A stretch of DNA of 64,000 bases from an uncultured delta proteobacterium (GTDB taxonomy: Bacteria; Chloroflexota; Dehalococcoidia; Dehalococcoidales; BS750m-G39), in NCBI GenBank assembly GCA_963739245.1, contig CAVTZP010000007.1, positions 187,723-251,722 on the forward strand. The letters are read 5' to 3'. This document shows positions 6,086 to 60,400 of the stretch, piece by piece. Every line of letters starts with the position of its first letter. Position 1 is the first letter of the stretch. The notes below the pieces were generated by a model that had not been told where the DNA came from, did no database searches, and saw only the letters and a program-made list of their open reading frames with translations. Both the position numbers and the translations under genes were made by a program.

Positions 6086-6535
6086 ATGCAGGAGGATGAA
6101 GTGGAAAAGGAGATTGATACTCATTCCTCTGACGCTAAACCCTCTCAGGTTACTGATATCTATTGGATTTATGCTAAGAGGAGAAAAGGTAAGTATCCCA
6201 AGCCTACTCTAAAAAATGGGAAGTGGCTTATCTTTGTGCCTGAAAAGGATATAGATGAGGTATGGGCTAAAATCAAGAAAGCTACTGAGGAAGGTAAGTT
6301 GGGTGGCGCTTCTAAGGTAGCGACAGCAAAACCAAGTCCATTAGGGAAACGAGAGCAGAAGGTTATTTGTGTTTACACTTACGACTGGACTGACGAGAAA
6401 GATGCAAGAAGAGTAAGAGAAGAACTCAGAAAACTAGGCATAACCAATAAGATACCTTATAAATCAGACGAGGATACGCTAAGCGGAAAATATAGAGCAA
6501 CAGGACACACAAGGATTAGTAAATACTATGAATGA
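6086..6535 (+). CDS. hypothetical protein, possibly DUF1917/Bles03-like
   Basis: 149 aa, AT-rich. The pattern GKWLIF...IDEVW..I......GKLG..SKV....(gap)...KVICVYTYDW.DE.D..RV...L..LG......YK.D..T..G.Y matches my recollection of that family. Not verified. Confidence 0.4.
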   Translation: MQEDEVEKEIDTHSSDAKPSQVTDIYWIYAKRRKGKYPKPTLKNGKWLIFVPEKDIDEVWAKIKKATEEGKLGGASKVATAKPSPLGKREQKVICVYTYDWTDEKDARRVREELRKLGITNKIPYKSDEDTLSGKYRATGHTRISKYYE

Positions 6536-6568
6536 TTACTCCACTTAATTAACGAGGTGGCTTAAAAG

Positions 6569-6650
6569 GGAGTCCAAGAGGGGCTTTGCCCCCTCTAAAA
6601 ATAAATTCTTCCCCCTCCCTTATCAAGGGAAGGGGATAAAGGGGAAGGGT
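6569..6650 (-). repeat. bipartite palindromic repeat, copy R1 (B'-A' orientation)
   Basis: GGAGTCCAAGAGGGGCTTTGCCCCCTCT ... TTCCCCCTCCCTTATCAAGGGAAGGGGATAAAGGGGAAGGGT. Lies 33 nt after the stop of the 6086-6535 gene. Confidence 0.85.
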
Positions 6651-6674
6651 TTCCCCAGATATAAGGAGGCAAAA

Positions 6675-7157
6675 ATGGAAATTGACTGCTTAGCTTGCGG
6701 CAAACCTATCAAGATACCGGATTTTATTGACACCAATAATTACGATGGCCAGCTCACCTGCCCGGAGTGCGCCTCGCTGCTTCATGTGAGACTGGGCGGG
6801 GGTAAGGTAAGGAAATACGAGGTGGTGGAAAGAAAGTCACGCGGCGCAACTCTGGCCGACAGCGCGGTTAGCCACAAAACCGGAGGGGAAACGGCGGATG
6901 TAGCCAGCATTGCCAAATACAACCCGCTAAGGGACTTCCTGTCCAGCTATAGAGCCACCCAGATGCAGCTGGTCTTCGAGCAGATTGAAAGCATTATCGG
7001 CTCTGAGCTGGAAAAGGAGGCATATACCTTCAAATCCTGGTGGGAAAACGACGGCGGAAACCCCCAGGCTACTGCCTGGCTCGAAGCCGGATGGGAAGTG
7101 GTTGATGTTAGCCTTCCGCAGCGGAGAATCATCCTCAAACGGATTAAACAACTTTAA
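6675..7157 (+). CDS. zinc-ribbon protein with conserved C-terminal domain of unknown function
   Basis: CxxC-x20-CxxC at the N-terminus (CLAC...CPEC). The C-terminal part, KYNPLRDFL...LVFEQIESIIG...SWWEND...ATAWLEAGWEVVDV, is a widespread stand-alone domain pattern. GGAGG Shine-Dalgarno upstream. Confidence 0.5.
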   Translation: MEIDCLACGKPIKIPDFIDTNNYDGQLTCPECASLLHVRLGGGKVRKYEVVERKSRGATLADSAVSHKTGGETADVASIAKYNPLRDFLSSYRATQMQLVFEQIESIIGSELEKEAYTFKSWWENDGGNPQATAWLEAGWEVVDVSLPQRRIILKRIKQL

Positions 7158-7368
7158 AGTAAGTTGCTACTCCGGCCAGACCTACGCCGAAAGACCAAGG
7201 TCTTTTGTCTGGGAGGGGGTGAAATATGAGGTGGCGGAGATAGAAAAGGAGTGGCGGGAGCCGGGGGAGAGGCATTTTCAGGTCAGAACTAAGGATAACA
7301 AACGGTTCCAACTCTGCTATAATGAAACACAAGACCGGTGGTCGCTAACTGAGCTAATGAGGAGCTAA
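7105..7368 (+). CDS. small hypothetical protein (start uncertain)
   Basis: The distal part of track ORF 6985-7368 looks coding (CYSGQTYAERPRSFVWEGVKYEVAEIEKEWREPGERHFQVRTKDNKRFQLCYNETQDRWSL). The first in-frame ATG after most of the overlap is at 7105. This call still overlaps the preceding gene by about 50 nt. Confidence 0.35.
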   Translation: MLAFRSGESSSNGLNNFKVSCYSGQTYAERPRSFVWEGVKYEVAEIEKEWREPGERHFQVRTKDNKRFQLCYNETQDRWSLTELMRS

Positions 7369-7370
7369 AC

Positions 7371-7853
7371 ATGACAAATGAGATTTTTAAGATACTGGAA
7401 AACGATGCCCGAACCACCCCGAAGCAAATATCAACCATGACCGGCATTCCCCAAAGTGAGGTCGACAAGCTCATCAAGCAAGCCGAGAAAGACCGAACCA
7501 TCCTGAAATACAAGACGATAATTAACTGGGACAAGGTAGGGGAGGAACAGGTGTCGGCTCTGATTGAGGTCAAGCTTATCCCGCAACGAGACGTTGGCTT
7601 TGACGCTGTCGCCGAGCGCATCTACCGCTTCCCCCAGGCTCGCTCGGTCTACCTCCTTTCCGGGGCTTACGACCTGCTGGTTCTGGTAACCGGCAAGACC
7701 ATGCATGAAGTGGCTGATTTCGTCTCCCAAAAGCTCGCCCCAATTGAAGGGGTGCAGGGGACAGTTACCCATTTCATGCTCAAGCGCTACAAAGAGGACA
7801 GCGAAATTCTGGGGGGGAAAGAGGAGACCAAGCGCCAGCCGGTAATCCTGTAG
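7371..7853 (+). CDS. Lrp/AsnC family transcriptional regulator
   Basis: 160 aa. An HTH segment (ILENDARTTPKQISTMTGIPQSEVDKLI) is followed by an AsnC-type ligand domain (VSALIEVKL...YLLSGAYDLLVLV). Confidence 0.85.
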   Translation: MTNEIFKILENDARTTPKQISTMTGIPQSEVDKLIKQAEKDRTILKYKTIINWDKVGEEQVSALIEVKLIPQRDVGFDAVAERIYRFPQARSVYLLSGAYDLLVLVTGKTMHEVADFVSQKLAPIEGVQGTVTHFMLKRYKEDSEILGGKEETKRQPVIL

Positions 7854-7862
7854 GAGATTTTT

Positions 7863-9042
7863 ATGTCGCTAAAAGTGCGCAATATTAGCTCACAGCGAGC
7901 CAACCAGATTGCCCCTTCCGGGATAAGGAAGTTCTTTGACCTTCTCGCCTCTATGGAGGGGGTAATATCACTCGGAGTGGGCGAGCCTGATTTTGCTACT
8001 CCCGTGGCACATCCGCGAGGCGGCTATCTACTCGCTGGAGAAGGGCCAGACCATGTATACCTCAAACTCAGGCATGCCCGAGCTTCGCCGCGAGCTGTCA
8101 AGATACCTCAAGAACAGCTATAACCTGAGCTATGACCCCGATACTGAGCTTCTGATTACCGTTGGCGTCAGCGAGGCGCTAGACCTGGCCACCAGAGCCG
8201 TCCTTGACCCCGGTGATGAGGTCATCATGCCCGACCCCCACTATGTCTCCTATGACGCCTGCGTCATTCTGGCTGGTGGCACCCCAATTATGGTCCCCAC
8301 CAGCGAGGAAAATAATTTTGAGCTTAGCGCCGCTGATATTGAGGCGCGAGTTACCAGCAAGACCAAGGCCATTCTTATCGGCTATCCGTCAAACCCTACC
8401 GGGGCGGTGATGAGCAAAGAAAAGCTGGCAAAAATAGCCGAAATAGCCCGCCGCCACCAGCTGCTGGTAATCTCCGATGAGATTTACGCTCGGCTTGTCT
8501 ACGGCGTGAAGCACACCTGCTTTGCCACCCTGCCCGGGATGAAAGAAAGTACCGTTTTTCTCGGCGGCTTCTCCAAGGCTTATGCCATGACTGGCTGGCG
8601 CATCGGTTACGCCGCCGCCAGTAAAGAGATTATCGCCGCCATGACCAAGATTCACCAGTACACCATAATGTGTGCCCCGACCATGGCTCAGGTCGCCGCC
8701 ATTGAGGCGTTAAAATCCGGTGAACGCAGTGTGCTGGAAATGGTTGAGGACTACAATCGGCGGCGGCTGGTTATGGTCAAGGGACTACATGACATTGGCT
8801 TACCCTGCTTTGAACCCAAAGGCGCATTCTACGCCTTCCCCTCAATAAAGGGCACCGGCATGACCTCGGAGGAGTTTGCCGAAAAGCTGCTGGTGGAGGA
8901 AAAGGTCGCTGTCGTCCCCGGCACTGCCTTCGGGCAATGCGGTGAGGGCTATGTCCGCTGCTGCTATGCCACCTCTCTGGCGGAGATTGAGGAAGCGCTT
9001 CTGCGGATGGGGCGCTTCGTTAAGAAGCACAAGAAAGTATAG
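7863..9042 (+). pseudogene. class I/II (aspartate-type) aminotransferase, split by a 1-nt insertion in a C run
   Basis: Frame 1 reads ...APSGIRKFFDL...ISLGVGEPDFATP. The +1 frame continues WHIREAAIYSLEKGQTMYTSNSG... Removing one C from CCC at 8001-8003 restores GEPDFATPWHIREA. The PLP lysine motif GFSKAYAMTGWR is present. Confidence 0.85.
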
Positions 9043-9098
9043 TTTGTCTATTGCTATCAACGCCGAGTGGTCAAGTTAGCGGCTAAGGAGATGTATAT

Positions 9099-9389
9099 AT
9101 GTTCAATATATTCCCTATAATACTCCTTCTTGGCTTTCTAGCCTTGTTTATTTATCTAGGTATACTAGTAAAAAGAAGAGGGTGGAAAACGATTAGCAAG
9201 ACCAGCAAGGTAGCAATATGCATCATAGCCTTCGGCCTCTTTGTGTTTCTGCTCACTCCACTACTGCTTGCCTTGTTCAATTTAGATAGCGATATAATAG
9301 GATTTCTTATAATGCTTGTTGGAGCCGCCGTCCTTCTCATAGGGTATGTTACTAACCATATAAGGAGAGGGAGGGAAAAGAGGAGGTAG
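9099..9389 (+). CDS. small membrane protein (3 TM), unknown function
   Basis: 96 aa, AT-rich, with a GGAG Shine-Dalgarno upstream. Hydrophobic helices and a basic C-terminus, RRGREKRR. Confidence 0.45.
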   Translation: MFNIFPIILLLGFLALFIYLGILVKRRGWKTISKTSKVAICIIAFGLFVFLLTPLLLALFNLDSDIIGFLIMLVGAAVLLIGYVTNHIRRGREKRR

Positions 9390-9398
9390 GTTTTTATG

Positions 9399-9483
9399 AA
9401 CCCCATCCCCTGTATCCCCTTCCCCTTAACAAGGGGAAGGGGAGGTTTGTTTTAAGAGGGGCTACCGCCCCTCTTTGACTGCC
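9399..9483 (+). repeat. bipartite palindromic repeat, copy R2 (A-B orientation)
   Basis: AACCCCATCCCCTGTATCCCCTTCCCCTTAACAAGGGGAAGGGGAGGTTTGTTTTAAGAGGGGCTACCGCCCCTCTTTGACTGCC. Lies between two convergent small membrane genes. Confidence 0.85.
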
Positions 9484-9513
9484 TGAATTTATACTCCAGA
9501 GGTAGACAGCAGG

Positions 9514-9975
9514 TTATTTTGGCTTTGCCGGTGCTGGGCGCCGCTGTTTTTTCCGCTCAAATAGCCACTTATAGTATAGAGCTGGAATAAGTAAAAACAA
9601 AATGAAACCAATGTAGAAAGCCGAAGTAACAAGCCAGTTTGATTGAAAATTCGAAACCAATGAACCAACTCCTTTTAAGTAGCCTATTATATACGTAAAC
9701 AAATAGATAATAAACAATGACCCGTGTAAGTTTTCAATAATAAAATCTTCGACATTATTAGACCAGTTTCCCCAAAATGCTGATATGACTAAAAGTAGAG
9801 ATACGACTCCAGCAATTCCTCCCAAAATCCAATAAACCATAGCAGGCATAGTTACAGTTGGCACATAATGTGCCCAATCGAAACCAACACTCCATCCACT
9901 CCCTTTTGGCATTCCAAGCAATATCATCGCAAATGAGAAAAGCAATACGCCCCAAGCTACAATACGTCTCGGCAT
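9514..9975 (-). CDS. membrane protein (4-5 TM), unknown function
   Basis: 153 aa, AT-rich, strongly hydrophobic, with a basic tail KKQRRPAPAKPK. Flanked by R2 and R3, which are in inverted orientation to each other. Confidence 0.45.
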   Translation of the reverse strand: MPRRIVAWGVLLFSFAMILLGMPKGSGWSVGFDWAHYVPTVTMPAMVYWILGGIAGVVSLLLVISAFWGNWSNNVEDFIIENLHGSLFIIYLFTYIIGYLKGVGSLVSNFQSNWLVTSAFYIGFILFLLIPALYYKWLFERKKQRRPAPAKPK

Positions 9976-10044
9976 TGGATAACCCTCCTTTTTTGCCCAA
10001 GTTTACAATAATAAATTAAGGCACTTCAATAGGAATAGAATAGA

Positions 10045-10126
10045 GGTGTCTAAGAGGGGCGAAAGCCCCTCTTCTTTTATTCCTCCCCCTCTCCTTCAAA
10101 GGAGAGGGGGATACAGGGGGTGAGGT
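10045..10126 (-). repeat. bipartite palindromic repeat, copy R3 (B'-A' orientation)
   Basis: GGTGTCTAAGAGGGGCGAAAGCCCCTCTTCTTTTATTCCTCCCCCTCTCCTTCAAAGGAGAGGGGGATACAGGGGGTGAGGT. Ends 4 nt from the trpS stop. Confidence 0.9.
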
Positions 10127-10130
10127 CAAC

Positions 10131-11105
10131 CTATAAAAGCCCCATCTTCTGCTTGACTTCTTTAAGTGTTTCCCTGGCAATCACGCTGGCGCGCTGGGCG
10201 CCGTCAGCCAGGACCTCCTTTATATACTCAGGTTTAGCGGCTAAGGCAGAGCGCCGCTGGCGCAGGGGGGCGAGGGCGGAGTTAATCTTCTCGGCGAGAA
10301 GCGTCTTGCACTCAACACAGCCAATCTTGGCCGAGCGGCACTGGATAGCAATGTCTGCCTGTTGCTCCGGGTTAAAATACCCGTGCAGGGTGTAAATATT
10401 GCATACCTCGGGGTGACCGGGGTCATTGCGGTACTGGCGGGCGGGGTCGGTAACCGCCGTCATCACCTTCTTTATTGTCTCCTCAGGCGAAAGGGCGATT
10501 TCAACATCATTGCCCAGTTGCTTGCTCATCTTCTCCTTGCCATCCAGCCCGAGCACCATTGGAAATGAGGTAAGCTTGGCTTGAGGCTCGGGGAAGGTAT
10601 CGCCGAAGAGGTTATTGAAGCGCCGGGCAATCTCCCGGGCCAGCTCCAGATGGGGAAGCTGGTCTTCGCCAACCGGCACCACCTCAGCCTTATAAAGCAC
10701 GATATCGGCGGTCATCAGCACCGGATAGCCCACCAGCCCGTAGTTCACATTCTGAGGCTGGAGCTTTACCTTCTCCTTGAAGGTAGGCACGCGCAGCAAC
10801 CAGCCCAGGGGGGTAACCATACTGAGCAGGGTATGTAGCTCCATTACCTCAGGGACATGGGACTGAACAAAGATGATGCTTTTCTTGGGGTCAAGCCCAG
10901 CCGCCAGCCAGTCGAGGGTCATCTCACGGATATTGCTCTGCAGGCTAGAGGTATCCTCCATTGTGGTCAGGGCATGGATATCAACAATGCAATAGACGCA
11001 ATCATACTCATCCTGCAGGCTGACATAGTTTTGTATTGCCCCGAGGTAATTCCCCAGGTGCTGCCGGCCGGTGGGGCGAGCCCCAGAAAAAACACGCTTC
11101 TTCAT
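10131..11105 (-). CDS. trpS: tryptophan--tRNA ligase
   Basis: 324 aa. HIGH-type motif PTGRQHLGNY and the KMSKS motif KMSKQ. Confidence 0.95.
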   Translation of the reverse strand: MKKRVFSGARPTGRQHLGNYLGAIQNYVSLQDEYDCVYCIVDIHALTTMEDTSSLQSNIREMTLDWLAAGLDPKKSIIFVQSHVPEVMELHTLLSMVTPLGWLLRVPTFKEKVKLQPQNVNYGLVGYPVLMTADIVLYKAEVVPVGEDQLPHLELAREIARRFNNLFGDTFPEPQAKLTSFPMVLGLDGKEKMSKQLGNDVEIALSPEETIKKVMTAVTDPARQYRNDPGHPEVCNIYTLHGYFNPEQQADIAIQCRSAKIGCVECKTLLAEKINSALAPLRQRRSALAAKPEYIKEVLADGAQRASVIARETLKEVKQKMGLL

Positions 11106-11120
11106 CCAAATCTCCTTCTT

Positions 11121-12779
11121 TTACATCCGCTCTGGGGCGCCCATACCCATAAGGTGGAGGGTCTTTGATAGGACAATCTTAGCCGCCTCAACCAGCTTGA
11201 GCCGAGCCTTGGTCAGCACCTCATCCTCAGAGACGACGCGGCACTGCTTATAAAAGCTGTGAAACACAGTCGCCAGGTCCAGGGCATAATAGGCAAGGTG
11301 GTGAGGCTCCAGTGCTTGGGCTACCACATCAACCATCTCAGGCAAAAGTAGCATCTTCCGTATTAAAGCCAGCTCAGGCTCAGTGGTGAGCAGAGAGACA
11401 TCACCATCGCCGGAGTTAATCCCCCTCTCCTGAGCCAGGCGAAGGATGCTGGCAATGCGGGCGTGAGCATACTGAACATAGTAGACGGGGTTATCGGCTG
11501 ACTGCTTCTTGGCCAGTTCCAGGTCAAAGTCCATCTGACTATCGGCGGTGCGGGAGGCAAAGAAAAAGCGGCAGGCATCCACCCCCACCTCATCTACCAC
11601 CTCACGTAGGGTAATAATATCGCCGCTACGCTTGGAAATCCTGACCAACTCGCCACCACGAGATAGGGTAACCATCTGGGAGATTATTACCTTGAGCCGT
11701 TCCGGGGCGATACCCAGGGCAGCCACCGCCGCCTTCATCCGGGTTATATGCCCCTGATGGTCAGCCCCCCAGATATTGATTACCCGGTCAAACTTGCGCT
11801 CCAAAAACTTGTTATAGTGATAGGCAATGTCAGAGGCGAAATAGGTAGGAGAACCATCGCTGCGCACCACCACATTGTCCTTATCCTCACCCAGGGCGGT
11901 GGAGACAAACCAGGTGGCACCTTCCTTCTCGCTGATATACCCCCCCTGGCGCAGGAGCGACATTACCCTTTCGTACTGACCATTCTGATAAAGGCTCTGC
12001 TCGCTGAACCAGATATCAAAGCTCACCCCGATTCGCTCAAGGTCGCTCTTGATTTGCTCTATCATCTTGACCAAGCCGATATGCCCCAGCTGGGCTATTG
12101 CCTCTTTCTCCGGCAGGGAGAGAAATTTGTCTCCCTCCTCAGCAATAATCTCCTTAGCCAGGTCAATCATATAGCTACCCAAATAACCGTCGGACGGCAT
12201 CTCGGCGTCAACGCCCAAACACTGCTGATAGCGAACGTAGAGTGAGCGGCAAAAGGCGTCTATCTGGCTGCCAGCATCATTAATATAATATTCCTCCTCC
12301 ACCTTATAGCCGGCAGCGGCAAGAACATTAGCCAGGGTGCTACCCAAAATCGCCCCACGACCATGACCAACATGGAGCGGGCCGGTAGGATTAACGCTAA
12401 CAAACTCGAGCTGCACCCGGCTACCCCGCCCCAGGTCAATATTGCCGTAGGAATCACCAGTCTTTAATATTGAAGACACCTGAGCGGTTAACCAGCTGCT
12501 GCTGAGGGTGAAATTGATGAAGCCGGGTGGTGCCACCGTAACACGGCTAACCTCGGGGCTGGCAGCGATACACCCAACCACCTCCTCAGCAATAGCCAGT
12601 GGGTTAACCCCGGTTGCCCGGGCTAATTTCAATGGTAAACTTGAGGCGTAATCCCCGTGCTCCGGGTTCTGGGGATGCTCAATACTAACCTCAGGCAAGG
12701 CGACCGAAGGTAGCTTGTCCAGCTCCTGTGCCTTGATTACTGCCTGCGTTAGCAAATCTATAAGCTTTTGCTTAATCAC
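11121..12779 (-). CDS. argS: arginine--tRNA ligase
   Basis: 552 aa. [11 protein letters not shown] (HIGH), a class I core and a C-terminal DALR anticodon-binding region. Lies 15 nt upstream of trpS. Confidence 0.95.
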
Positions 12780-12845
12780 TAATTACTCCGCTGTAACCTT
12801 CAAATTATAGCACAAAGCTAGCTAAAGAATAACCCCACACCACAG

Positions 12846-14516
12846 CTAACCGCTACCCTTCCCTATCTGTTTCACCGCATTGTAGGTTACAATGCCACCA
12901 GAAATATTCCGGGCGTTAAACCCATTCAGACGCAGTATACGGGTAGCATAGTACGATCTCTGCCCTGTATGACAATAAACCCATATCTCCCCATTCCGGG
13001 GAAGCTCAGTCAACAGCGAACGAAGTTCCGGTAGCGGAATATTGACCGCCCCTTTCACTCTGTCGACAGCAACCTCCCCTAGAGTGCGAACGTCGAGAAT
13101 CATAGCCTTTGACTCAGTAATATCCTCCCAGTGGGCAATCGGGGCATCACCGCGCAAGGTGTTAGCCGCAACCATTCCCGCCAGATTGACCGGGTCTTTG
13201 GCAGCACCAAACTGTGGCGAGTAGCAAAGTTCGGCTTCCTCAAGGTCAAAGACAGTTGAATTTCGCTGAATGGCCATAGCAATGACATCAATCCGTTTCT
13301 CAACCCCTTCCTTACCAACCGCTTGAGCGCCAAGAACACGTCCGTCTTTTGTCGAGAAAATCAGCTTCAATGCCATAGATTCCGCACCCGGGTAATAGCT
13401 AACATGCTGGCTTGGATATAGATAAACCTTCTCATAAGGTATAGGCTTGCCACTAACGGCGGCGCGCCTTAGCCCTTTTTCACTAGCCCCAGTTGAGGCG
13501 ATAGTCATATTGAATACGCTACAAACGGCGGTGGCTTGAACACCACGGAATCTAACGTCACGCCCAAAGATAACGTCAGCAGCAATCCGTCCTTGCCGAT
13601 TAGCCGGGCCAGCAAGTGGCGCCAGAGTCCACTCACTGGTAATGAAATCTCGCGTCTCAACGGCGTCACCAACTGCCCAAATCCGCTCGTCACTGGTACG
13701 CATCTGGTCGTTAACGCGTATACCGCCGTAAGCCCCAATCTCAAGACCTGCCGCCTTAGCCAGGCTGACCTCGGGACGAACACCAAGGCTAAGAATAACA
13801 AGGTCGGCGGTATGAGTCTCACCGGACTTCAATCTGACAAGAATTGTTCCGTCGCTATTTTGTTCAAATCCAGTAACAGGCTCACCAAGGCAAAGACGCA
13901 CGCCATTGGCTAAGAGATGACCATGAATTGGCACCGCCATCTCAGGGTCAAGCATCGGCACAACCTGTGGCTCCATCTCAATAAGGGTTACCGAAACTCC
14001 ACGCTTGGCCAGGTTCTCGGTCATTTCCAATCCGATAAATCCACCACCAACGATAACCGCCTGCTTAACATTATGCTCCACAATCCATTCTTTAATCTGG
14101 CGGCTGTCGGGAATTGTCCGAAGACAAAAAATGCCAGGAATATCAATGCCTGGGAGTGACGGACGAATAGGCGTTGCCCCTGGTGCCAGCACCAAGGCAT
14201 CGTATCCTTCACGATATACTTTGCCTGTCTTCAAGTCCTTAACCTCGAGCTCATTCTTTTCACGGTCAATAGCCATGACTTCGTTCTCGGTTCGAACATC
14301 AATATTGAATCTCTTCTTCAAAAACTCAGGCGTTGCCAGAAGCAGCTCCTTCTCCTCGCTGATGACGTTGCCAATATAATAGGGCAGACCGCAGTTGGCA
14401 AAAGAGATGTAAGAGCCTCGTTCAAAGATGATAATCTCTGCCTCTTCCGAAAGCCGGCGCGCCCGAGTGGCACAAGAGGCGCCACCAGCCACCCCACCAA
14501 CGATAAGAATCCTCAT
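12846..14516 (-). CDS. CoA-disulfide reductase-type FAD oxidoreductase fused to a rhodanese domain
   Basis: Dinucleotide fold GGVAGGASCA, redox Cys motif SFANCGLPYY, a second NAD(P) fold VIVGGGFIGLE, and a C-terminal rhodanese loop VYCHTGQRS. Confidence 0.85.
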   Translation of the reverse strand: MRILIVGGVAGGASCATRARRLSEEAEIIIFERGSYISFANCGLPYYIGNVISEEKELLLATPEFLKKRFNIDVRTENEVMAIDREKNELEVKDLKTGKVYREGYDALVLAPGATPIRPSLPGIDIPGIFCLRTIPDSRQIKEWIVEHNVKQAVIVGGGFIGLEMTENLAKRGVSVTLIEMEPQVVPMLDPEMAVPIHGHLLANGVRLCLGEPVTGFEQNSDGTILVRLKSGETHTADLVILSLGVRPEVSLAKAAGLEIGAYGGIRVNDQMRTSDERIWAVGDAVETRDFITSEWTLAPLAGPANRQGRIAADVIFGRDVRFRGVQATAVCSVFNMTIASTGASEKGLRRAAVSGKPIPYEKVYLYPSQHVSYYPGAESMALKLIFSTKDGRVLGAQAVGKEGVEKRIDVIAMAIQRNSTVFDLEEAELCYSPQFGAAKDPVNLAGMVAANTLRGDAPIAHWEDITESKAMILDVRTLGEVAVDRVKGAVNIPLPELRSLLTELPRNGEIWVYCHTGQRSYYATRILRLNGFNARNISGGIVTYNAVKQIGKGSG

Positions 14517-14598
14517 AAACCTTACCCCCTTTAAGCACCAAGGCTTTTGTGGGCGGGTGGGTGGGAAGAAAAAGTATTGTTAAACACCTCTTCTCTCT

Positions 14599-14680
14599 AC
14601 CTCACCCCCTTAATCCCCCTCTCCTTCAAAGGAGAGGGGGAAGAGATTTTTTAAGAGAGGCTACGCCTCTCTTTGACTCC
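14599..14680 (+). repeat. bipartite palindromic repeat, copy R4 (A-B orientation)
   Basis: ACCTCACCCCCTTAATCCCCCTCTCCTTCAAAGGAGAGGGGGAAGAGATTTTTTAAGAGAGGCTACGCCTCTCTTTGACTCC. Confidence 0.9.
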
Positions 14681-14762
14681 TTATTAAAAACGAACTCGGC
14701 TCCCCACGTGGGGGAAAATCCGAACTTTTGCGGAGGTTTGTCTTTTCTAGACTGCTCAGAAT

Positions 14763-15524
14763 TCATGGTCTTATATCAAAAGAACGGATACCACTACTAT
14801 CTATGGTCAATGTAGTTATCTCACCGCCAATGGATGGCAAAAGAGTGCTCATACCATAAATCTGACTAATAATTCTGATCTGAAATCGAATATACTCAGC
14901 CCTGCCTTCTAAAGATGGTCGCGGAATGTTTATGTTACGCTGACGAAGGGTCGAGTTTAAAAGGCTCTCAAAATCTTCCCACCATGCAGCGTAAAAAGTG
15001 TAATCTCCATTCCTGACAATAAAGTAAGGGTTGTTTGGGTTATAACCACCCTGTGTAATGGCTCCGCCTAAATCGTAGTTAGCATTAAAAATATGTGTGT
15101 TGATATTTTGAAAGAACTGACTAGGGCCATTATGGATATGCCAGAAATCTGGCGCTAAGCGTCCGTTTTTAAGAACGAAGCCAGCTAGGTGAAATCCAGC
15201 TTCGGCTTGTCCTGACTGGGTTGGCGGTATAATTCTGTTTAGTTCGTCTTGAAGCAGTGTGGCAAACGCCTGTAAAGTTTGGCTCTGGCCTTGACACCTA
15301 GTAATGAACTCACTTAGCCATATATCGGTCTCAACGTTGCCTATTTGCCCGTATCCCCAACAAGAGGCACCAGCTTGAAGATAAGGAATTGGGAAAAGTT
15401 TCTGAACGCCCATCAGTACTCGGTTGCCAATTTGACCATTAGGTAATGGAGTCCGGCAAGTAACCGCGCTATCCGCCCCCATAACTATTCCGTATGACGA
15501 AATCTCTGTAAGTACTAAGGTCAT
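14763..15524 (-). CDS. orphan protein, candidate Thr1 N-terminal-nucleophile hydrolase (proteasome-beta/HslV-like)
   Basis: 253 aa. After Met removal the N-terminus TLVLTEISSYGIVMGADSAVT aligns position for position with HslV [21 protein letters not shown] (Thr1, Asp17, Thr21). A GVQKLFPI Lys follows, and SIGGEITTLTIDSSG near the C-terminus resembles the GSGG region. Fold assignment is unverified. Confidence 0.4.
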   Translation of the reverse strand: MTLVLTEISSYGIVMGADSAVTCRTPLPNGQIGNRVLMGVQKLFPIPYLQAGASCWGYGQIGNVETDIWLSEFITRCQGQSQTLQAFATLLQDELNRIIPPTQSGQAEAGFHLAGFVLKNGRLAPDFWHIHNGPSQFFQNINTHIFNANYDLGGAITQGGYNPNNPYFIVRNGDYTFYAAWWEDFESLLNSTLRQRNINIPRPSLEGRAEYIRFQIRIISQIYGMSTLLPSIGGEITTLTIDSSGIRSFDIRP

Positions 15525-18951: not shown

Positions 18952-18977
18952 TTAAAAGCCTTTGCCCCTTATTACTG

Positions 18978-25829: not shown

Positions 25830-25846
25830 GTTGAATTCTCCTTCTA

Positions 25847-25932: not shown

Positions 25933-25933
25933 C

Positions 25934-51721: not shown

Positions 51722-51760
51722 TACACTTCCTCCGGTTCAAATTATGAATAAAATAGTGTT

Positions 51761-52144
51761 CTATTTAAAAGCCTCCGGAAATGCTTTTTTTGCTTTTTTA
51801 ATCACCTCCATATCGGATGCCGCAAGCAAGGCATTGGACTTCGACTCGGCTTTATTAGCTCTTTGCTCGGTTTGCTCTTTACCGGCTGACCCGATTTGTA
51901 AGCCGAAGAACGCTCCTACCAGAGTTCCGAGAACGCTCGTAAATAGACCCACGATGGCAACAATGTCATTAGCTTGTTTGATTCCAAATGCAAGGAGTAC
52001 CAAAACTAATAGAGCCGCAAGAAAAAGACCAATTATGGCTAACCAAAAAGCCTTACTAATCCGGAATATTTCCACTTGAGGATCTTTAGTAATTGACGCC
52101 GATTCTTTCGCAGGTGTCGTTGGTTGATTTCCTCCCTGTGACAT
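51761..52144 (-). CDS. small membrane protein (2 TM) sharing a C-terminal tail with the neighbouring gene
   Basis: 127 aa, AT-rich. Two TM helices, then ..EVIKKAKKAFPEAFK. GGAGG Shine-Dalgarno upstream. Confidence 0.45.
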   Translation of the reverse strand: MSQGGNQPTTPAKESASITKDPQVEIFRISKAFWLAIIGLFLAALLVLVLLAFGIKQANDIVAIVGLFTSVLGTLVGAFFGLQIGSAGKEQTEQRANKAESKSNALLAASDMEVIKKAKKAFPEAFK

Positions 52145-52224
52145 ATATCCTCCTTTCTACACATTTGGCATAAAATATACACCTTTTAGTCACTCTTGTC
52201 AATAGGGACACCCCAACTTAAGTG

Positions 52225-52380
52225 GGTGTCTAAGAGGGACGCCAGCCCCTCTTTTATAAAATCTTCCCCCTCCTGGAGAAATTTCTAAGTCCTAATATCT
52301 AAACTCTAACAGGCACGAATTGCGTTGTTTAGTATTTCGGATTTCGTGCTTTGAGTTTCTAATGTTAGGGGGTGAGGTAG
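52225..52380 (-). repeat. bipartite palindromic repeat, copy R9 (B'-A'), with the A hairpin interrupted
   Basis: An intact B' (GGTGTCTAAGAGGGACGCCAGCCCCTCTT) and the left A arm (TCTTCCCCCTCC) are followed by about 90 nt of unrelated AT-rich sequence. Then comes the terminal flank TAGGGGGTGAGGTAG at 52366-52380. Confidence 0.65.
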
Positions 52381-53172: not shown

Positions 53173-54447
53173 TTACGGGCGCACCTGCCCGCTACCAAAG
53201 ATAATCCACTTATAGCTGGTTAGCTCCCTCAACCCTAGCGGACCGCGGGCATGAAACTTCTGGGTACTGATGCCGACCTCAGCCCCCAGGCCAAACTGAC
53301 CACCATCGGTGAAACGGGTGCTGGCATTGACATAGACGCAGGCGGCATCCACCTCATCAAGGAAGCGCATGGCGGCACCATATTCCTCAGTGACAATCGC
53401 CTCAGAGTGCCCCGAGCCATAGCGCTCAATATGCTCAAGCGCCTCATCCAGAGAGTCCACCACCTTGACCGCCGCCACCAGCGCCAGAAACTCCTTGCCC
53501 CAATCCCCATCAGTAGCTGGCGCCAGCTTCAAAGAAGGGTCTGACTTAAGGATAGCCATCGCCCGCTTATCACAGTGCATCTCCACCCCCGCCTTCGCCC
53601 ACTCCACTGCCACCAGGGGGAGATAGCGCTGGGCAATATCGGCATGAACCAGAAGGCAGTCCAGGGCGTTACAAACGGTGGGGCGCTGCACCTTGGCATT
53701 AAAGGCAATAGCCACCGCCTTATTCACATCAGCGCTCTTGTCCACATAGGTATGGCAAACACCAATGCCACCGGTTACCACCGCCATAGCGGCATTTTCC
53801 GCGACAAACCTTATCAGCTCAGCACCACCCCGGGGAACAATCAGGTCAATAAACTCCCTCATCTTGAGCATGTGATTGACCAGGGCTCGGTCAGTATTCT
53901 CAACAAACTGAACCGCCCCCTCGGGGACGCCGGCTCTGGTTGCCGCCTCCTGAACTACCTTAGCTAAGGCACTATTGGAGTGAATTGCCTCCCTGCCCCC
54001 CCTTAAGATAACGGCGTTGCCCGACTTCAGGCAGAGGACAGAGATATCGACACTAACATTGGGTCGGCTCTCATAGACAGCGCCAACCACCCCCAGCGGC
54101 ACCCTTTTCCTGCCGAGCAACAAGCCATTGGGCAGGGTGCGCATATCAAACACCTCGCCCACCGGGTCAGGGAGTGCCGCCACTGCCAGCACATCCCTGG
54201 CTATAGCCTCAAGACGGCTGGAGTCAAGCATCAGCCTATCCAGCATGGCGGCGTTCATCCCTGAGGCATGAGCCTCATGGTAGTCAATCTGGTTAGCCGC
54301 CAGTATTTCGTCCTTCTTAGCCAGAAGGTCACTGGCAATATTATGTAAAGCCTTATTTTTGACCTCGGTAGAGAGGTAAGCCATGCGCCGGGAAGCCGCC
54401 TTCGCCGCCCTAGCTTTTGCTTCTAGCTCGCCAGTTGCTGATTTCAT
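53173..54447 (-). CDS. proA: glutamate-5-semialdehyde dehydrogenase (gamma-glutamyl phosphate reductase)
   Basis: Aldehyde-dehydrogenase fold with the CNALDCLLVH active site. I place the start at ATG 54447 (MKSATGELEAK...). The track's extra 56 N-terminal codons are translation of repeat copy R10. Confidence 0.9.
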   Translation of the reverse strand: MKSATGELEAKARAAKAASRRMAYLSTEVKNKALHNIASDLLAKKDEILAANQIDYHEAHASGMNAAMLDRLMLDSSRLEAIARDVLAVAALPDPVGEVFDMRTLPNGLLLGRKRVPLGVVGAVYESRPNVSVDISVLCLKSGNAVILRGGREAIHSNSALAKVVQEAATRAGVPEGAVQFVENTDRALVNHMLKMREFIDLIVPRGGAELIRFVAENAAMAVVTGGIGVCHTYVDKSADVNKAVAIAFNAKVQRPTVCNALDCLLVHADIAQRYLPLVAVEWAKAGVEMHCDKRAMAILKSDPSLKLAPATDGDWGKEFLALVAAVKVVDSLDEALEHIERYGSGHSEAIVTEEYGAAMRFLDEVDAACVYVNASTRFTDGGQFGLGAEVGISTQKFHARGPLGLRELTSYKWIIFGSGQVRP

Positions 54448-54454
54448 TTTATTA

Positions 54455-54575
54455 ATCTCACCCCCTGTATCCCCCTCTCCTTGAGAAGGAGAGGGGGGAA
54501 GGTATTGTTTAGAGGGACTTCGTCCCTCTTGGACTCCCTTGAATTTATTTGGGCTTCGCCCCTCTTGGACTCTCC
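54455..54575 (+). repeat. repeat family copy R10: A module plus B module plus an extra half B module
   Basis: ATCTCACCCCCTGTATCCCCCTCTCCTTGAGAAGGAGAGGGGGG ... TTTAGAGGGACTTCGTCCCTCTTGGACTCC ... GGGCTTCGCCCCTCTTGGACTCTCC. It fills the gap between the small ORF and proA. Confidence 0.85.
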
Positions 54576-54577: not shown

Positions 54578-54880
54578 CTACTTAAGCAGGCCCACGCCGT
54601 TAACGCGATAGACACTGCGGGCAGGAATCCCGGGCAGTACCCGATTGACCAGCTTTCTCACAAAACACCTGCCCCTGCACCCATCCTCCAATTCAATAAT
54701 ATACCCATCCTTCTCGCTAATCTTTATGCTCCTATCAATAGCACACTCTCCCCACCAGCGAGCTGGCTCAGCCGCCGCGTCCTGGTAGAGCTTACAGTCA
54801 ATATCCGAGATAAATTGCTCGCTGCCGCCAATAGGGATAAGGTAGAGCTTGCCCCTACCCTCTTTAATCTCCATATTCAC
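54578..54880 (-). CDS. small hypothetical protein inserted between proB and proA
   Basis: 100 aa. GGAG Shine-Dalgarno-like sequence upstream. No motif recognised (..GKLYLIPIGG..ECAIDRSIKISEKDGYIIELEDGCRGRCFVRKL..). Confidence 0.4.
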   Translation of the reverse strand: MNMEIKEGRGKLYLIPIGGSEQFISDIDCKLYQDAAAEPARWWGECAIDRSIKISEKDGYIIELEDGCRGRCFVRKLVNRVLPGIPARSVYRVNGVGLLK

Positions 54881-54884: not shown

Positions 54885-56000
54885 TTATTCTAATACTACC
54901 AGATTATTCCTATGCACTATCTCAGAGCCGTAGTCGTAGCCAAGGAGGGTGGTAATCTTCTCCGAGTGTGCCCCTTTAATTACCGCAATCTCCGCCGAGC
55001 TATAGTTGGTTATGCCGCAGCCAAGCCGAGACCCTTCAGGGTCATAGATATTTACGATATCACCCCGCTGAAACTCGCCACTAGCGCCTTTAATGCCGGC
55101 GGCGAGCAGGCTCCGCTTCTGCTTCTTTAAGGCTATCGCCGCCCCCGAATCCACCACCAGCTTGCCCCTGGTGGCAAGACCGCTGAGCATCCAGCGCTGG
55201 CGGCTCTCAAGCTTGCTGGTAGTGGGCAGAAAGCGGGTGCCCAGGGCCTCAGCATTTGCCAGCCGTAGGACAACATCTCGCTCCCTGCCATCAGCGATAA
55301 CCACCGTCACTCCGGAAGAGGTAGCCAGCCTTGCCGCCTCTATCTTGGTAATCATGCCTCCGGTGCCAAGTCTACTGGAGGTACCAGACGCCAGGCGCTC
55401 AATCTCTGAATCTATCCTCTCCACCTGCGAAATAAGGCGGGCATTGGGGTCAACATGAGGGTCAGCAGTATACAGCCCGGCAGTATCGGTAAGAATCATC
55501 AACAGGTCGGCATCAATAAGGTTAGCCACCATCGCCGAAAGATTATCGTTATCGCCAAACCTGGCCTCGTGAAGCTCGTCAACGGCAACAACATCGTTTT
55601 CATTGACAATACATATTACCCCCAGCTCCAGTAAAGCGAGAAGGGTATTTCTGGCATTAAGATAACCAGCCCGGTCAAGGAGGTCAACCTTGGCCAGCAA
55701 CGCCTGAGCCACCGTAATATCATACTTACTGAAGAGTTGCTCATAGAGGCTCATCAAACGATGCTGCCCCACTGAAGCCAGCACCTGCTTAAGAGGGATA
55801 CCTTTAACCCTCTTGGTCAACCCCAGCTCATGCCGGCCGGAGGCTATAGCCCCGGAGGAAACTAAAATCGCCTCCAGCCCCTGCTTATGCAATTGCGCCA
55901 CCTGGGCTACCAGGCTTGACATTATACTCCGGTCAAGGCGGTCGCTACCGCCGGTAAGCAGGCTGGTGCCAAATTTAACTACTATCCGCCGATATGACAT
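54885..56000 (-). CDS. proB: glutamate 5-kinase (with PUA domain)
   Basis: 371 aa. VVKFGTS, VSSGAIA, and a C-terminal PUA-like segment [23 protein letters not shown]. Confidence 0.95.
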
Positions 56001-59100: not shown

Positions 59101-59405
59101 TGGACAAGATAGAGCAGGTAGAAGAAATGGCTAAGGAATTCAGCGACCGCTTTGGCTCTCTGCCCATAGAGGTAAAAAACCTGCTCTACGCGGTCAGGGT
59201 CAAGATTCTGGCGGCAAAGGCCGGCATTGAATCCATCTCCACTGAAGACGGTCAAATAATACTTCGGCTATTTGAGGGTGTGAAATTCACCCCGGAGCAA
59301 CGGGCGCTCAGCTTCCCCGATGGCGTTAGAATGGGCACAAGCCAGATAGGGCTAAACCTGAAACGGCTGGGGAAGGAGTGGCAGAGGGTATGGAGGGGGT
59401 GTTAA
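56118..59405 (+). CDS. mfd: transcription-repair coupling factor
   Basis: About 1095 aa. Has a UvrB-homology N-terminus, an RNAP-interaction domain (GDYVVHVEHGIGRF), and an SF2 helicase core (CGDVGYGKTEVALRAAF, DEEQRFGV, QLRGRVGRG). ATG 56118 is preferred over the track's TTG at 56106. Confidence 0.95.
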   Translation: MDLTKLLNLIAEMPAYHQLLDELRRNASTEVSVLEAAKPYLIAALFQSVRLPMVVVTAQPEKSRRLYEQLLAWSNSSQLKLLPEPDALPYERIASDASTEQERVQVLSALANISGETNAPLIVASAPAVMQKTTPYSDFISAGHILKPGMDIEPFELLGKWQAMGYRMENIVEMPGTMSHRGGIIDVYPPTSDLPARLEFFGNTIESIRTFDPASQRSLTPVSSMAIGPATERLTPLKDSILNYLPPACLLVLDEPQNIKQAVDELDAQASELRAEKLERGELPANFPRPYLNWKELEPEIREKPCLMLTAWAVGEEDSSHRLNFTVAPSYAGQLPAFVNKVKQLLKQKQRLIIVSHQASRLSELLGQEDIIASPVTELEQIPPPGSLTLVQGLLAEGWVMDNHTTLFTDAEVFGFIKQRRLIKRRAVPHHRFVIEFAPGDYVVHVEHGIGRFAGVTRMSTEDSEKEYLVLGYGAGDKLYVPTDQIDRVNRYIGASDHPPVLNRLGTQEWTRTKQRAKEAAEDVAQELLALYATREVVPGFAFSGDSVWQQELEASFPYVETPDQIKVQGEVKGDMEKAKPMDRLVCGDVGYGKTEVALRAAFKAVMDGKQVAVLVPTTVLAQQHFATFSQRLDAFPVRIEVLSRFKTPKEQQAILKGLSDGSVDICIGTHRLLQKDVVFKNMGLLIIDEEQRFGVAHKEHLKKLRQEVDALTLSATPIPRTLHMSLVGVRDMSTMETPPEQRLPIKTYVAEYNERLIREAILREMERNGQVFFVHNRVQGIAFITGKLRELVPEAKIAIAHGQMPEAELEKVMADFARGKSDVLVCTTIIESGLDMPNVNTLIINRADKFGLTQLYQLRGRVGRGANLAYAYFLYDHGKRLTPNAEKRLKTIFEATELGAGFGIAMKDLEIRGAGTLLGPRQSGHITAVGFNLYTRLLAEAVEELKAKQAGIAVTKPSHLPPPTLDLPLRAYIPEEYVADIDTRLSLYQSLVKLDKIEQVEEMAKEFSDRFGSLPIEVKNLLYAVRVKILAAKAGIESISTEDGQIILRLFEGVKFTPEQRALSFPDGVRMGTSQIGLNLKRLGKEWQRVWRGC

Positions 59406-59416
59406 AGGGGGTGGGG

Positions 59417-60052
59417 CAAAATATAGCATTGATATAATAATTTAAATGGTGTTAGAATAGCAAGAATTAATGTTTCCGGAGCTATTTTAGAATGACTGTA
59501 GACACGAAAGCAGTTGTTAGGTATTGCCTAGCACAGCTCTAAATGAACTTGGAATTTTCAGTTATACGGTTTATACTTAACCTATCAGCAGCCAAGATAG
59601 GAAAGGAGTGAGAGTGCATTTCATCTGTACACTCCCAGTGGAAGCTAGGGGATTAAAATAGTGGTCTGTCTTTTCTGTTGATGAGCAAAACTGTAGTGCC
59701 ATAACCTTTTCGGCGACTTGAAGGGTTATAGAAGATCTAACAATGGGTGATTCGGACGTCATTTGAAAGTGCGTTGGCTGGGATGCCAGTCTTACCACCT
59801 AAAGACTACAATCGCTTTTATATACAGGGACTCTTTAGCGATTGTGTCTGGACTTTTGGCATAGAAACTCCTATCTCGTTTGAGCAGATTCTATCAGAAA
59901 AACAAAGAATGCCCTAGCCACGATGCAAGAGCTAATCTTAGAGATAGATAGTTATCGCAATTACACTGCCTCAACAAAAGACTAGATAAGTGAGATAGCA
60001 AGTATTTAACTCTAAGGTTTTTCCTAGTTCTCAAAGTCAAACAAGTAATCAA
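59417..60052. other. AT-rich non-coding stretch of about 640 bp between convergent genes
   Basis: Stops are frequent in all six frames; the only listed ORF is a 73-codon one that looks spurious. The stretch is visibly AT-richer than its flanks. Local hairpins include CAATCGCT/AGCGATTG (59809-59844) and GGAGTG/CACTCC (59604-59634). Confidence 0.5.
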
Positions 60053-60130
60053 GCAGTCTAAGAGGGGCGAAAGCCCCTCTTCTCAAAATTCTTCCCCTTC
60101 CCAAGGGGAAGGGGATACAGGGGATGGGGT
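60053..60130 (-). repeat. bipartite palindromic repeat, copy R11 (B'-A' orientation)
   Basis: GCAGTCTAAGAGGGGCGAAAGCCCCTCTTCTCAAAATTCTTCCCCTTCCCAAGGGGAAGGGGATACAGGGGATGGGGT. Ends 11 nt from the corrected acpP stop. Confidence 0.9.
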
Positions 60131-60141
60131 TACCCTAACTA

Positions 60142-60400
60142 CTAATCCTTAATGCCATGGTCTCTAAGATAATCAATGGCATCCTGAACGGTCTGCTATC
60201 TTCTCCGCGTCCTCGTCCGGTATCTCAACCTTGTGGTCTGGTGTGCTAAACTCCTCCTCCAGCGCCATTATCAATTCAACCAAATCCAGAGAGTCAGCGC
60301 CTAAATCGTCAACAAAGCTAGCTGACGGCACCACCTCGGCTTCTTCCACGCCGAGCTGGTCAGTAACTATCTTCTTTATCCTCTCAAAAACCTTGGGCAT
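60142..60400 (-). CDS. acpP: acyl carrier protein (apparent 1-nt insertion near the 3' end)
   Basis: [19 protein letters not shown] with the phosphopantetheine Ser. The track ORF ends ..[10 protein letters not shown]. Removing the base near 60196 gives ..[20 protein letters not shown] (stop 60142-60144), the canonical ACP C-terminus. Confidence 0.9.

Follow-up and report, generated by a model that had tools for sequence, protein, structure and literature searches.

A stretch of 64,000 nt from contig CAVTZP010000007.1 (positions 187,723 to 251,722; hereafter the window), which belongs to an uncultured member of the Dehalococcoidales, carries eleven copies or fragments (R1 to R11) of a new, previously undescribed family of structured intergenic repeats of about 85 nt, found in one lineage of uncultured Dehalococcoidales. 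As judged from alignments with close relatives, the copies persist at orthologous intergenic sites while the gene on one side of them, that of the repeat's tail, differs from one relative to the next. The element resembles REP (repetitive extragenic palindromic) units and their compound forms, the bacterial interspersed mosaic elements (BIMEs) and the REP doublets forming hairpins (REPINs), and we give roughly even chances to the reading in which its tail, or the centre where two tails meet, is a recombination-prone and tolerated site of gene turnover.

The repeat unit of 85 nt is described here in the orientation (F) that reads leader or head, first hairpin (hp1), spacer, second hairpin (hp2) and tail, its reverse complement being called R. 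The head is C-rich and has a weak TTTAT motif followed by AACCTCACCCCCTGTAT; hp1 is a G+C stem of 11–12 bp with arms CCCCCTCTCCTT and AAGGAGAGGGGG and a loop of 3–5 nt; an A+T-rich spacer of about 12 nt leads to hp2 (8–9 bp, arms AAGAGGGGC and GCCCCTCTT, loop of 3–4 nt), and the unit closes with a short tail, nGACTCC. The boundaries of the element are sharp, conservation beginning and ending abruptly at both ends in end logos. Three self-complementary variants of hp1 define the subtypes A (CTCTCC/GGAGAG), B (TTCCCC/GGGGAA) and a rarer C.

Gene turnover beside the copies

Relatives of the window were found through trpS and mutS homologues, and comprise L001 and L003 (97% and 91% identity in trpS), L208 and L209 (98% in MutS) and L210 and L211 (about 90% in MutS). 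At the R1 site, the gene order in the window is gatA, a Bles03-family gene, R1 and a DUF7662 gene; L001 has an orthologous copy (within a long alignment of about 95% identity) beside an unrelated 209-aa membrane protein, the stop of which overlaps the tail, and L003 has the Bles03 gene at a site empty of any copy. The slot between trpS and an aminotransferase gene is bounded by R2 and R3, which are both orthologous in L003 (92.5% for R2) with an unrelated 214-aa gene between the arms. In L001 the same slot holds a third gene (144 aa), R2 being cut inside hp2 and R3 reduced to about its first 7 nt, and in L013, from another species, both arms are present with 24 nt between the tails and no gene. 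A block of 1.07 kb (14527–15599) with R4 and the 253-aa gene at its tail is missing in L001, where recG and the next gene are 35 nt apart. The R5 copy is present in L210 and L128, L211 being empty with a gap of 11 nt, and at the R6 site L211 carries a full copy. R8 is orthologous in L208 and in L210 (94.7%), and the slot between its tail and the stop of a gltD-like gene (a label for a gene with Fer4_20 and Pyr_redox_2) contains three unrelated gene sets in three relatives: a 306-aa open reading frame (ORF) in the window, DUF6941 and a helix-turn-helix gene (with Gp49) in L208/L209, and, in L210, HEPN_Swt1 with a 139-aa gene. The region downstream of mutS is occupied in L211 by an empty A/B doublet (centre of 14 nt), to the distal arm of which R7 is orthologous; L210 has a decayed, near-empty doublet, L208 a 194-aa gene abutting the distal hp2, and the window a different ORF of 248 aa.

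Sites of other species follow the same pattern, with the cargo on the tail side every time: the fam15/fam16 site is without cargo or holds one gene (163 aa or 200 aa) or two, the fam37/fam38 site has none, none or a 146-aa gene, and L063 and L073 carry different genes with a GC content of 0.33–0.35. A comparison of every solo copy that had usable flanks of 400 nt and a flank in common with another (the two arms of one slot being set aside) gave 8 orthologous pairs in which both flanks align, 12 long alignments, from 7 independent sites, in which the head flank alone does, and none in which the tail flank alone does. The junctions cluster around hp2 without sharing one nucleotide: they lie at the hp2 3' end or the end of the tail, about 20 nt past the tail, at the hp2 5' base or inside the hp2 5' arm. 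An earlier note on this DNA had suggested that the copies mark or attract the insertion of foreign genes, possibly as units bounded by the repeat. In substance this is borne out, as gene turnover at one end of resident copies; a gene and its site moving together as one unit finds no support in the other contexts of the 253-aa gene (below) or in the sampled loci, where no cargo family recurs with arms.

The composition of the flanking DNA has the same polarity. In the window (GC 0.517), each of the 7 low-GC segments that reach 750 nt or more is in contact with a copy, and 8 low-GC segments of 300–600 nt have no copy within 2.7 kb (0/8 touched). Eight of the eleven copies adjoin a low-GC gene or segment (estimated P ~7e-4, assuming that about 23% of the window gaps border a low-GC gene), and an orphan, AT-rich or non-coding segment is found on the tail side of 9/11, with 9099–9389 and 29985–30308 as the only head-side exceptions. 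The link that had been drawn between copies and AT-rich orphan genes therefore stands, except that the ORF at 54578–54880 has a GC content of 0.52 and that the 253-aa "orphan" has homologues in several phyla. Across about 120 repeat-bearing loci, genes with a GC content over 6 points lower than that of their locus account for 31 of 152 tail-side neighbours, 7 of 152 head-side neighbours and 39 of 626 genes not adjoining a copy (Fisher p = 4e-5 and 7e-7 for the tail-side excess). Independently of gene calls, the 600-nt flanks of solo copies have a GC content of 0.476 on the tail side vs 0.523 on the head side (Wilcoxon p = 1e-6), and with 1000-nt flanks a GC deficit exceeding 0.05 is on the tail side for 26 copies and on the head side for 1. 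No difference between upstream and downstream GC was found for 391 repeat-free co-directional gaps. The tail-side deficit is present in co-directional gaps for both R-oriented (36 vs 13, p = 6e-4) and F-oriented copies (8 vs 1, p = 0.02), which indicates that the polarity tracks the tail of the element and not the direction of transcription; convergent (7 vs 2) and divergent gaps (9 vs 6) point the same way without reaching significance (n = 9–15). Since the tail-side flanks do not resemble each other, they are not a hidden extension of the element. The AT-rich association is thus real and polar, with the low-GC DNA on the tail side (hp2, GACTC end).

Structure, pairing and distribution of the repeat

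A single unit is without inverted ends; it forms two perfect hairpins that are separate from each other, with folding energies of -39 to -47 kcal/mol (z = -2 to -6). This structure is kept by compensation. A direct hairpin scan found 96.6% of the pairs in 213 hp1 stems and 96.8% of those in 207 hp2 stems to be Watson-Crick, and an arm-type contingency table showed that the 5' and 3' arm types of hp1 co-vary (178 copies concordant, 4 discordant), as does the type of the head with that of hp1. Both were used instead of an RNAalifold consensus on MAFFT alignments, which was poor because differences in loop length misalign the 3' arms. G:T and A:C mismatches are equally rare in the stems and the asymmetry of wobble pairs is not significant (12 vs 22 in hp1, 14 vs 17 in hp2), so that the data do not discriminate between a structure acting as RNA and one acting as DNA. 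In B-type copies (e.g. 9431–9400 and 60103–60131, R strand), the head and the hp1 3' arm read GGGGAAGGGGATACAGGGGATGGGG, i.e. four G4 tracts with loops of 2–5 nt, a canonical G-quadruplex motif which would compete with hp1; the R strand that carries it is the sense strand for most solo copies within operons.

Copies are often paired, and in one geometry. Neighbours within 100 nt are arranged tail-to-tail in 27 cases, head-to-head in none and in tandem in 15, the latter mostly consisting of a full copy and an additional hp1-hp2 or hp2 module; when the distance is extended to 500 nt, 40 pairs are tail-to-tail and 0 head-to-head. The 28 doublets that could be typed comprise 21 AB, 5 BB and 2 AA (49% AB expected, p = 0.007), and 6/7 of the wider pairs that enclose a gene are also A/B. 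Doublets are quasi-palindromes of about 190 nt with centres unrelated in sequence. Their single strand folds at -57 kcal/mol (z = -7.4), with head paired to head and hp2 to hp2 and each hp1 folding locally. Extra hp2-like modules lie on the tail side in 22 cases and on the head side in 5, mostly within 115 nt. At the far side of the cargo, no regular distal hp2 remnants (attL/attR-like marks) were found, the extra modules being located at the tail.

A 21-nt pattern covering the head and hp1 has matches in at least 118 stretches of GTDB representative genomes, and among the matches listed almost all are from uncultured Dehalococcoidales or Dehalococcoidia metagenome-assembled genomes (MAGs), including dozens of Dehalococcoidales genomes. 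A profile search of 909 kb of repeat-bearing loci, drawn from many Dehalococcoidales MAGs, gave 254 non-overlapping copies, at a density of about one extra copy per 6 kb of flank, equal to that of the window. A metagenome scan based on argD gave mostly distant bacteria and serves as a negative control: in 922 kb around argD homologues of other bacteria, the repeat was found at one locus, that of the closest relative (77% identity), along with one marginal match. In IMG/VR, one contig, probably chromosomal, carries the pattern. The restriction of the hits to a lineage, together with their density, indicates a family that is lineage-specific, abundant and chromosomal. The closest homologues of trpS and mutS of the window are likewise annotated as Dehalococcoidia or Dehalococcoidales MAGs. 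No Rfam family matched the 64-kb window at the gathering threshold, and the literature searched by lineage, repeat type and motif strings held no description of the element. The 21-nt pattern also matches two records from outside the Chloroflexi, namely L031, a contig of Streptomyces sp. for which the match may be due to chance, and L081, a contig from a "Deltaproteobacteria" MAG, which has one or more additional matches to the profile and probably belongs to the Dehalococcoidales, having been mis-binned.

Copies of the window and their neighbouring genes

The eleven copies reported in the earlier note were all recovered, at the same places, by repeat search, direct reading and an nhmmer profile, which agree with each other. 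The E-values of the nine larger copies range from 1e-7 (the R9 fragment) to 1e-23; R6 (E 0.003) and an extra hp2 beside R10 (E 0.045) match the profile weakly, and are recognized mainly through the direct-repeat family D7. R1 (6567–6653, - strand, B/C subtype, E 2e-20) is a full solo copy with its tail toward the AT-rich Bles03-family gene 6086–6535 (+; Pfam PF08939, 1e-25; GC 0.40). R2 (9398–9484, +, subtype B, E 1.7e-22) and R3 (10039–10133, -, subtype A, E 1.1e-23), both full, are the left and right arms of a tail-to-tail A/B pair around a 153-aa membrane-like ORF (9514–9975, -, GC 0.39), and the head of R3 abuts the stop of trpS. On the head side of R2 stands a 96-aa membrane-like ORF (9099–9389, +, GC 0.40), the sole AT-rich orphan in such a position; it is missing from L001 and L003, in which the stop of the aminotransferase gene abuts the R2 copy. 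R4 (14597–14682, +, E 7e-23), R5 (25845–25933, +, E 2.6e-20) and R8 (34640–34734, +, E 1.4e-18) are full solo copies of subtype A. The tail of R4 points toward the 253-aa gene (14763–15524, -, GC 0.43) and that of R8 toward the AT-rich 306-aa ORF (34759–35679, -, GC 0.42), and R5 lies between argD and argG. R6 (27144–27179, +), between argB and argD, is a fragment with only hp2. R7 (30345–30413, +, subtype A, E 1e-10, profile positions 2–58) has an enlarged hp1 loop and is without hp2; the 248-aa ORF between mutS and R7 (30373–31119, -), in a low-GC segment (30201–31070, GC 0.40), begins where this hp2 would be.

R9 (52219–52273, -, E 1.2e-7, profile positions 36–84) had been described as an interrupted copy in a divergent region. 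The gap is indeed divergent, and the copy is a truncated 3' fragment (hp1 3' arm, spacer, hp2 and tail), with no 5' half nearby. Its tail faces a pair of small AT-rich ORFs with weak Pfam hints only (51413–52144, -) in the low-GC segment 51371–52500 (GC 0.42). R10 (54453–54538, +, subtype A, E 1e-21) is full and is followed by the extra hp2 module (54540–54575, +), a duplicate of the second hairpin. With the 100-aa ORF of normal GC toward which its tail points (54578–54880), R10 sits between proB (54885–56000) and proA (53173 to about 54446), both named by Pfam; proBA is normally a tight operon. Both flanks of R10 are alignable with those in L120, from another species, the tail side at 66% DNA identity over 315 nt, and this ORF, instead of being an orphan, may represent a small gene that is real and conserved. 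R11 (60047–60137, -, subtype B, E 4.7e-20) is full, with its head about 10 nt from the stop of acpP and its tail toward AT-rich, apparently non-coding DNA (59417–60052) in the low-GC segment 59311–60230. At the far side of this block, a C-rich stretch, CCCCACCCCCTTTAACACCCCCTCC (59390–59424, - strand), overlaps the stop of mfd and resembles the head of the element; the match is weak and could be a decayed arm or a chance similarity.

The 253-aa gene has 142 homologues in several phyla, including Planctomycetota, Thermodesulfobacteriota and Theionarchaea. Those with 81%, 66% and 64% identity stand in three other contexts with no repeat copy nearby, on the basis of which a unit of gene plus repeat was rejected. 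The family consists of proteins of about 250 aa without a Pfam domain, with a patchy distribution in Dehalococcoidales and the three groups just named; some members are located near toxin-antitoxin genes (BrnT, HepT/nucleotidyltransferase), and it may be an uncharacterized accessory or defence gene. PADLOC and PHROGs gave nothing meaningful for the orphans of the window.

By ORF-based gene calls on about 120 loci, 179 of 184 copies are intergenic. The earlier note had placed the copies immediately 3' of stop codons. The gaps were reproduced within 1–3 nt (33, 9, 30, 4, 82, 1–4 and 8–11 nt, an overlap, then 27–29, 2 and about 10 nt), but the position is not special: R1, R3, R4, R5, R6, R8 and R10 are also only about 6–81 nt from the next gene start, across the loci a stop is faced 137 times and a start 154 times, and of the copies in co-directional gaps 52 lie closer to the stop and 54 to the start. 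The closeness to stops is due to the gaps between genes being short, and any intergenic element would show it. Co-directional, divergent and convergent gaps hold 72%, 16% and 12% of the copies, respectively, and make up 80/10/10% of the background by count and 63/22/15% by length. A terminator scan of 5000–16000 gave the copies as top matches only in F, the orientation in which the T-rich spacer follows hp1; in R, neither hairpin is followed by a U-tract. Relative to transcription, 79 of 109 copies in co-directional gaps are in R, and the solo copies among them divide into 61 R vs 13 F (82% R). Insertions in F within operons are presumably selected against, and hp1 with the T-run behind it is the likely reason for this excess of R. 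These numbers do not support the proposal that the copies are, in their general role, generic terminators or 3'-UTR hairpins, given also the share of divergent gaps and the absence of any enrichment in convergent ones. The element is not a general terminator, though single copies in F may act as terminators. The head end (sense strand, GGGGGTGAGGT) sits a few nt before start codons. As GGGGGAGAGGT / GGGGGTGAGAT (sense) it is found 5–11 nt before the start of argG (L210, 11880–11892) and probably of proA (window, 54440–54460), and it appears to serve L210 argG, and perhaps also proA of the window, as a Shine-Dalgarno sequence.

Several genes of the window look split or truncated (60877–61473, 61877–62608, 49129–49494 and 15600–15663): fabG has a Pfam match only from position 48, fabD has 243 aa, a metallo-beta-lactamase fragment has 121 aa, and recG stops at 15663 with homology to L001 continuing to 15600. 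Such truncated housekeeping genes suggest indel errors in the assembly, and the ORF ends in the window should be read with care. The acyl carrier protein gene acpP (60142–60400, -) is frameshifted, the ORF 60173–60400 encoding the N-terminus up to "...EDAEKI" and another frame the conserved C-terminus, with the stop at 60142–60144; either the assembly has an indel here or the gene is a pseudogene. DegV-family paralogues, each of 280 aa, stand three in tandem at 18109–20659 (69–78% DNA identity between copies), where L001 and L003 have a single DegV. Genes for the competence channel ComEC and for CinA are present at 44428–46323 and 50939–51412, and uptake and recombination of DNA could be how tail-side genes are exchanged. 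One difference between strains does not involve the repeat: 692 bp (1152–1843), most of an alpha/beta-hydrolase gene (1111–1881), are missing in L001 (97% flank identity) with no copy at either junction, and L003 has a gene of the alpha/beta-hydrolase family at the corresponding edge of the locus.

Nature of the element and of the turnover

REP units are single palindromes of 20–40 nt with a GTAG or CGTC tag at one end, and REPIN systems have a cognate gene for a REP-associated tyrosine transposase (RAYT, a Y1/HUH transposase) flanked by repeats. The present family shares with them its high copy number, its intergenic location and its G+C-rich palindromic units; the two subtypes in inverted orientation (A/B) recall the Y and Z REPs of BIMEs, and the doublet as a higher-order unit, the many singlets and the lack of target duplication recall REPINs. 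The earlier note had offered integron attC sites and REP sequences as analogies for an insertion target, and the latter is the closer of the two. Elsewhere in bacteria, REP sequences are known to be preferred by mobile DNA as targets; ISPpu9, for one, sits in them (PMC12288879). REP singlets are regarded as remnants of REPINs (PMC3337134). Unlike REPs, the unit studied here has 85 nt, two different hairpins and a conserved head, which reads AACCTCACCCCC without a GTAG or CGTC tag, and no RAYT was found in the DNA examined. To our knowledge, transposase-less cargo at doublet centres and strictly one-sided turnover have not been described for REPs.

Other known systems agree in part. [quoted passage not shown] Unlike these, the present family has no target-site duplication, unconserved inner sequences and no known parent IS, and its arms stay fixed while the cargo changes. 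Terminal inverted repeats are absent from the single unit, and doublets have them only if each 85-nt arm is counted as one; the longest k-mer shared between junctions averages 3.7–3.9 nt, as in shuffled controls (20 doublets, 77 solos), which rules out a classical MITE. As for integrons, attC sites are imperfect palindromes of 60–190 nt beside promoterless, often AT-rich orphan genes, and copies dispersed without a nearby integrase resemble the clusters of attC sites lacking integron-integrases (CALINs). The attC analogy is nonetheless rejected. The ends of the element read AACC...GGTT, with neighbouring bases that, by eye in the end logos and doublet ends, do not fit the cores RYYYAAC/GTTRRRY (R''/R'); there are two local hairpins instead of one long bulged hairpin; the cargo lies between palindrome arms and not between successive sites; breakpoints are imprecise; and, rather than forming same-orientation arrays, the copies are dispersed among housekeeping genes in both orientations. 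No integrase, tyrosine recombinase or transposase was found among the window ORFs scanned or the cargo genes. Recombinase-less modules with inverted short repeats, swapped among related replicons or strains in fixed slots flanked by conserved genes, are known from the pdif modules of Acinetobacter plasmids, the minimal mobile elements of Neisseria and variable genes flanked by dRS3 or Correia repeats. A pdif site has about 28 bp, with two 11-bp recombinase-binding arms, a 6-bp spacer and a precise crossover. In the present family, what bounds the cargo is one end of the 85-nt hairpin unit, hp2 (8–9 bp, a loop of 3–4 nt, 8–9 bp) does not have this layout, and junctions differ by several to tens of nt between relatives, a scatter which argues against a precise site-specific crossover. 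The modules of Neisseria are exchanged by homologous recombination in the flanking core genes, whereas no recombinase or uptake system is linked to the boundary here.

It is unlikely that the copies are generic intrinsic terminators or 3'-UTR stabilizers which foreign genes need or bring along. REP elements do stabilize mRNA 3' ends, F copies (hp1 with the T-rich spacer) are the top terminator-like matches in 5000–16000, and the strong orientation bias implies that transcription matters; yet most solo co-directional copies (82%) are oriented without a U-tract after either hairpin, the use of gap types follows the background with 16% of copies in divergent gaps, starts are faced as often as stops, the AT-rich side goes with the tail, and the wobble asymmetry expected of a structure acting only as RNA is missing. 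We consider improbable, to a similar degree, a non-autonomous transposon in which the two 85-nt arms of the A/B doublet would be the terminal inverted repeats of a MITE, the cargo pairs would be MICs moved in trans by an unseen transposase, and the solos decayed halves. The 40:0 tail-to-tail arrangement, which turns the heads outward like terminal inverted repeats, the A/B composition of 6/7 wider cargo pairs, the sharp ends, single copies that are polymorphic in presence or absence between relatives and the REPIN-remnant view of singlets cited above would all suit such an element. Against this, neither doublets nor solos show target-site duplication beyond that of shuffled controls, the doublet centres are unrelated, the arms stay orthologous with only the inner gene changing, no transposase was found among cargo or neighbours (only orthologous housekeeping genes recur beside the copies), and cargo also joins solo copies at sites where the relatives show no second arm.

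Still less probable, in our estimation, is a site-specific cassette system in which the tail or hp2 is the site of a host recombinase encoded elsewhere (attC/CALIN-like or Xer/pdif-like) that inserts and cuts out circular gene cassettes. Recombinase-less cargo swapped at one defined end, cargo that is sometimes flanked by inverted copies as in pdif modules, and the hp2 modules duplicated at tails speak for it; the breakpoints at differing nucleotides (hp2 3' end, 5' base, 5' arm, about 20 nt past the tail), the lack of regular hp2-like remnants at the far side of the cargo, the lack of attC cores, of same-orientation arrays and of an integrase in the window, and the homologues of cargo elsewhere without the repeat speak against it. 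Moreover, no cargo family recurs in different slots of the sampled loci, the low-GC cargo genes being nearly all singletons. We give equally little credence to the absence of any mechanistic role, whereby copies and foreign genes would share a few tolerant gaps, with a polarity arising from a head tied by selection to the neighbouring gene as its ribosome-binding site. The copies do fill very short gaps, and the position of the head end before starts, with its apparent role for argG in L210 and a possible one for proA, fits this. However, the polarity also holds where the head abuts a stop (trpS, the aminotransferase gene, acpP), in F-oriented contexts and, in direction, in convergent ones, and the tail itself as the place of events is indicated by the 40:0 pairing and by the eroded hp2 where cargo begins.

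In the reading we favour, at about even chances, the REP/BIME/REPIN-like element has a fragile joint at its tail or at the centre of the quasi-palindrome, where hairpins or cruciforms would provoke breaks or template switching. The quasi-palindrome of about 190 nt, or the hairpin-rich end, may stall replication, or may be extruded and cut, and repair of the breaks by illegitimate or short-homology recombination with incoming DNA would capture foreign DNA between the tails. As the tail or centre would also be a tolerated joint, cargo would accumulate there, and a head lying a few nt from a start codon and supplying its Shine-Dalgarno sequence would further disfavour insertion on the other side. 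Events of this kind would erode hp2 or a whole arm by varying amounts and leave solo copies with tail-side cargo, which matches the observations. Several points weigh against this reading. Breakage at the tail is an inference. At some sites the cargo stands next to a solo copy and relatives have no second arm, so the fragility of palindrome centres cannot explain everything, and the state of L003 at the R1 site implies that the AT-rich gene there predates the copy, so that some of the association may stem from where copies insert. The sample of breakpoints is small (about 8 junctions), the gene context rests on our own ORF-based calls, which are crude with uncertain starts, the loci were picked because they contain the repeat, and MAG contigs may be mis-binned. 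The search for a RAYT or Y1 transposase in about 930 kb by tblastn and phmmer gave nothing at E < 0.1, and was a weak test, with IS200 TnpA and E. coli RAYT as queries.

A bolder version, which we hold to be doubtful, sees a dispersed, chromosome-wide gene-capture system of the Dehalococcoidales with the tail (hp2) as docking site. Single accessory genes without a recombinase of their own would be taken up and swapped at hundreds of hairpin "sockets" located between core genes, by means of a host-encoded enzyme or a structure-specific repair pathway, and this would amount to a functional likeness of an integron spread over the whole chromosome and built on REPIN-like doublets.

The family brings a new variation, polar and socket-like in behaviour, to the REP/REPIN theme. 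The genomes of Dehalococcoidales are small and streamlined, most of these organisms are uncultured, and their gain of accessory genes is poorly understood outside the known Dehalococcoides islands. If one end of a repeat marks hundreds of turnover slots, it would provide a simple marker for strain-variable genes in MAGs, the cargo here including toxin-antitoxin, HEPN and unknown genes. The strict polarity and the geometry of the doublets would surprise specialists, and the pattern can be checked in public metagenomes. Should the link be merely permissive, the family is still an abundant lineage-specific marker and a new structured repeat to catalogue. If one end of the repeat really marks such slots, the REP/REPIN concept would extend from selfish palindromes that attract IS elements to palindromes that organize the flexible genome, and the family would offer a natural test of long quasi-palindromes as recombination hot spots in wild bacteria.

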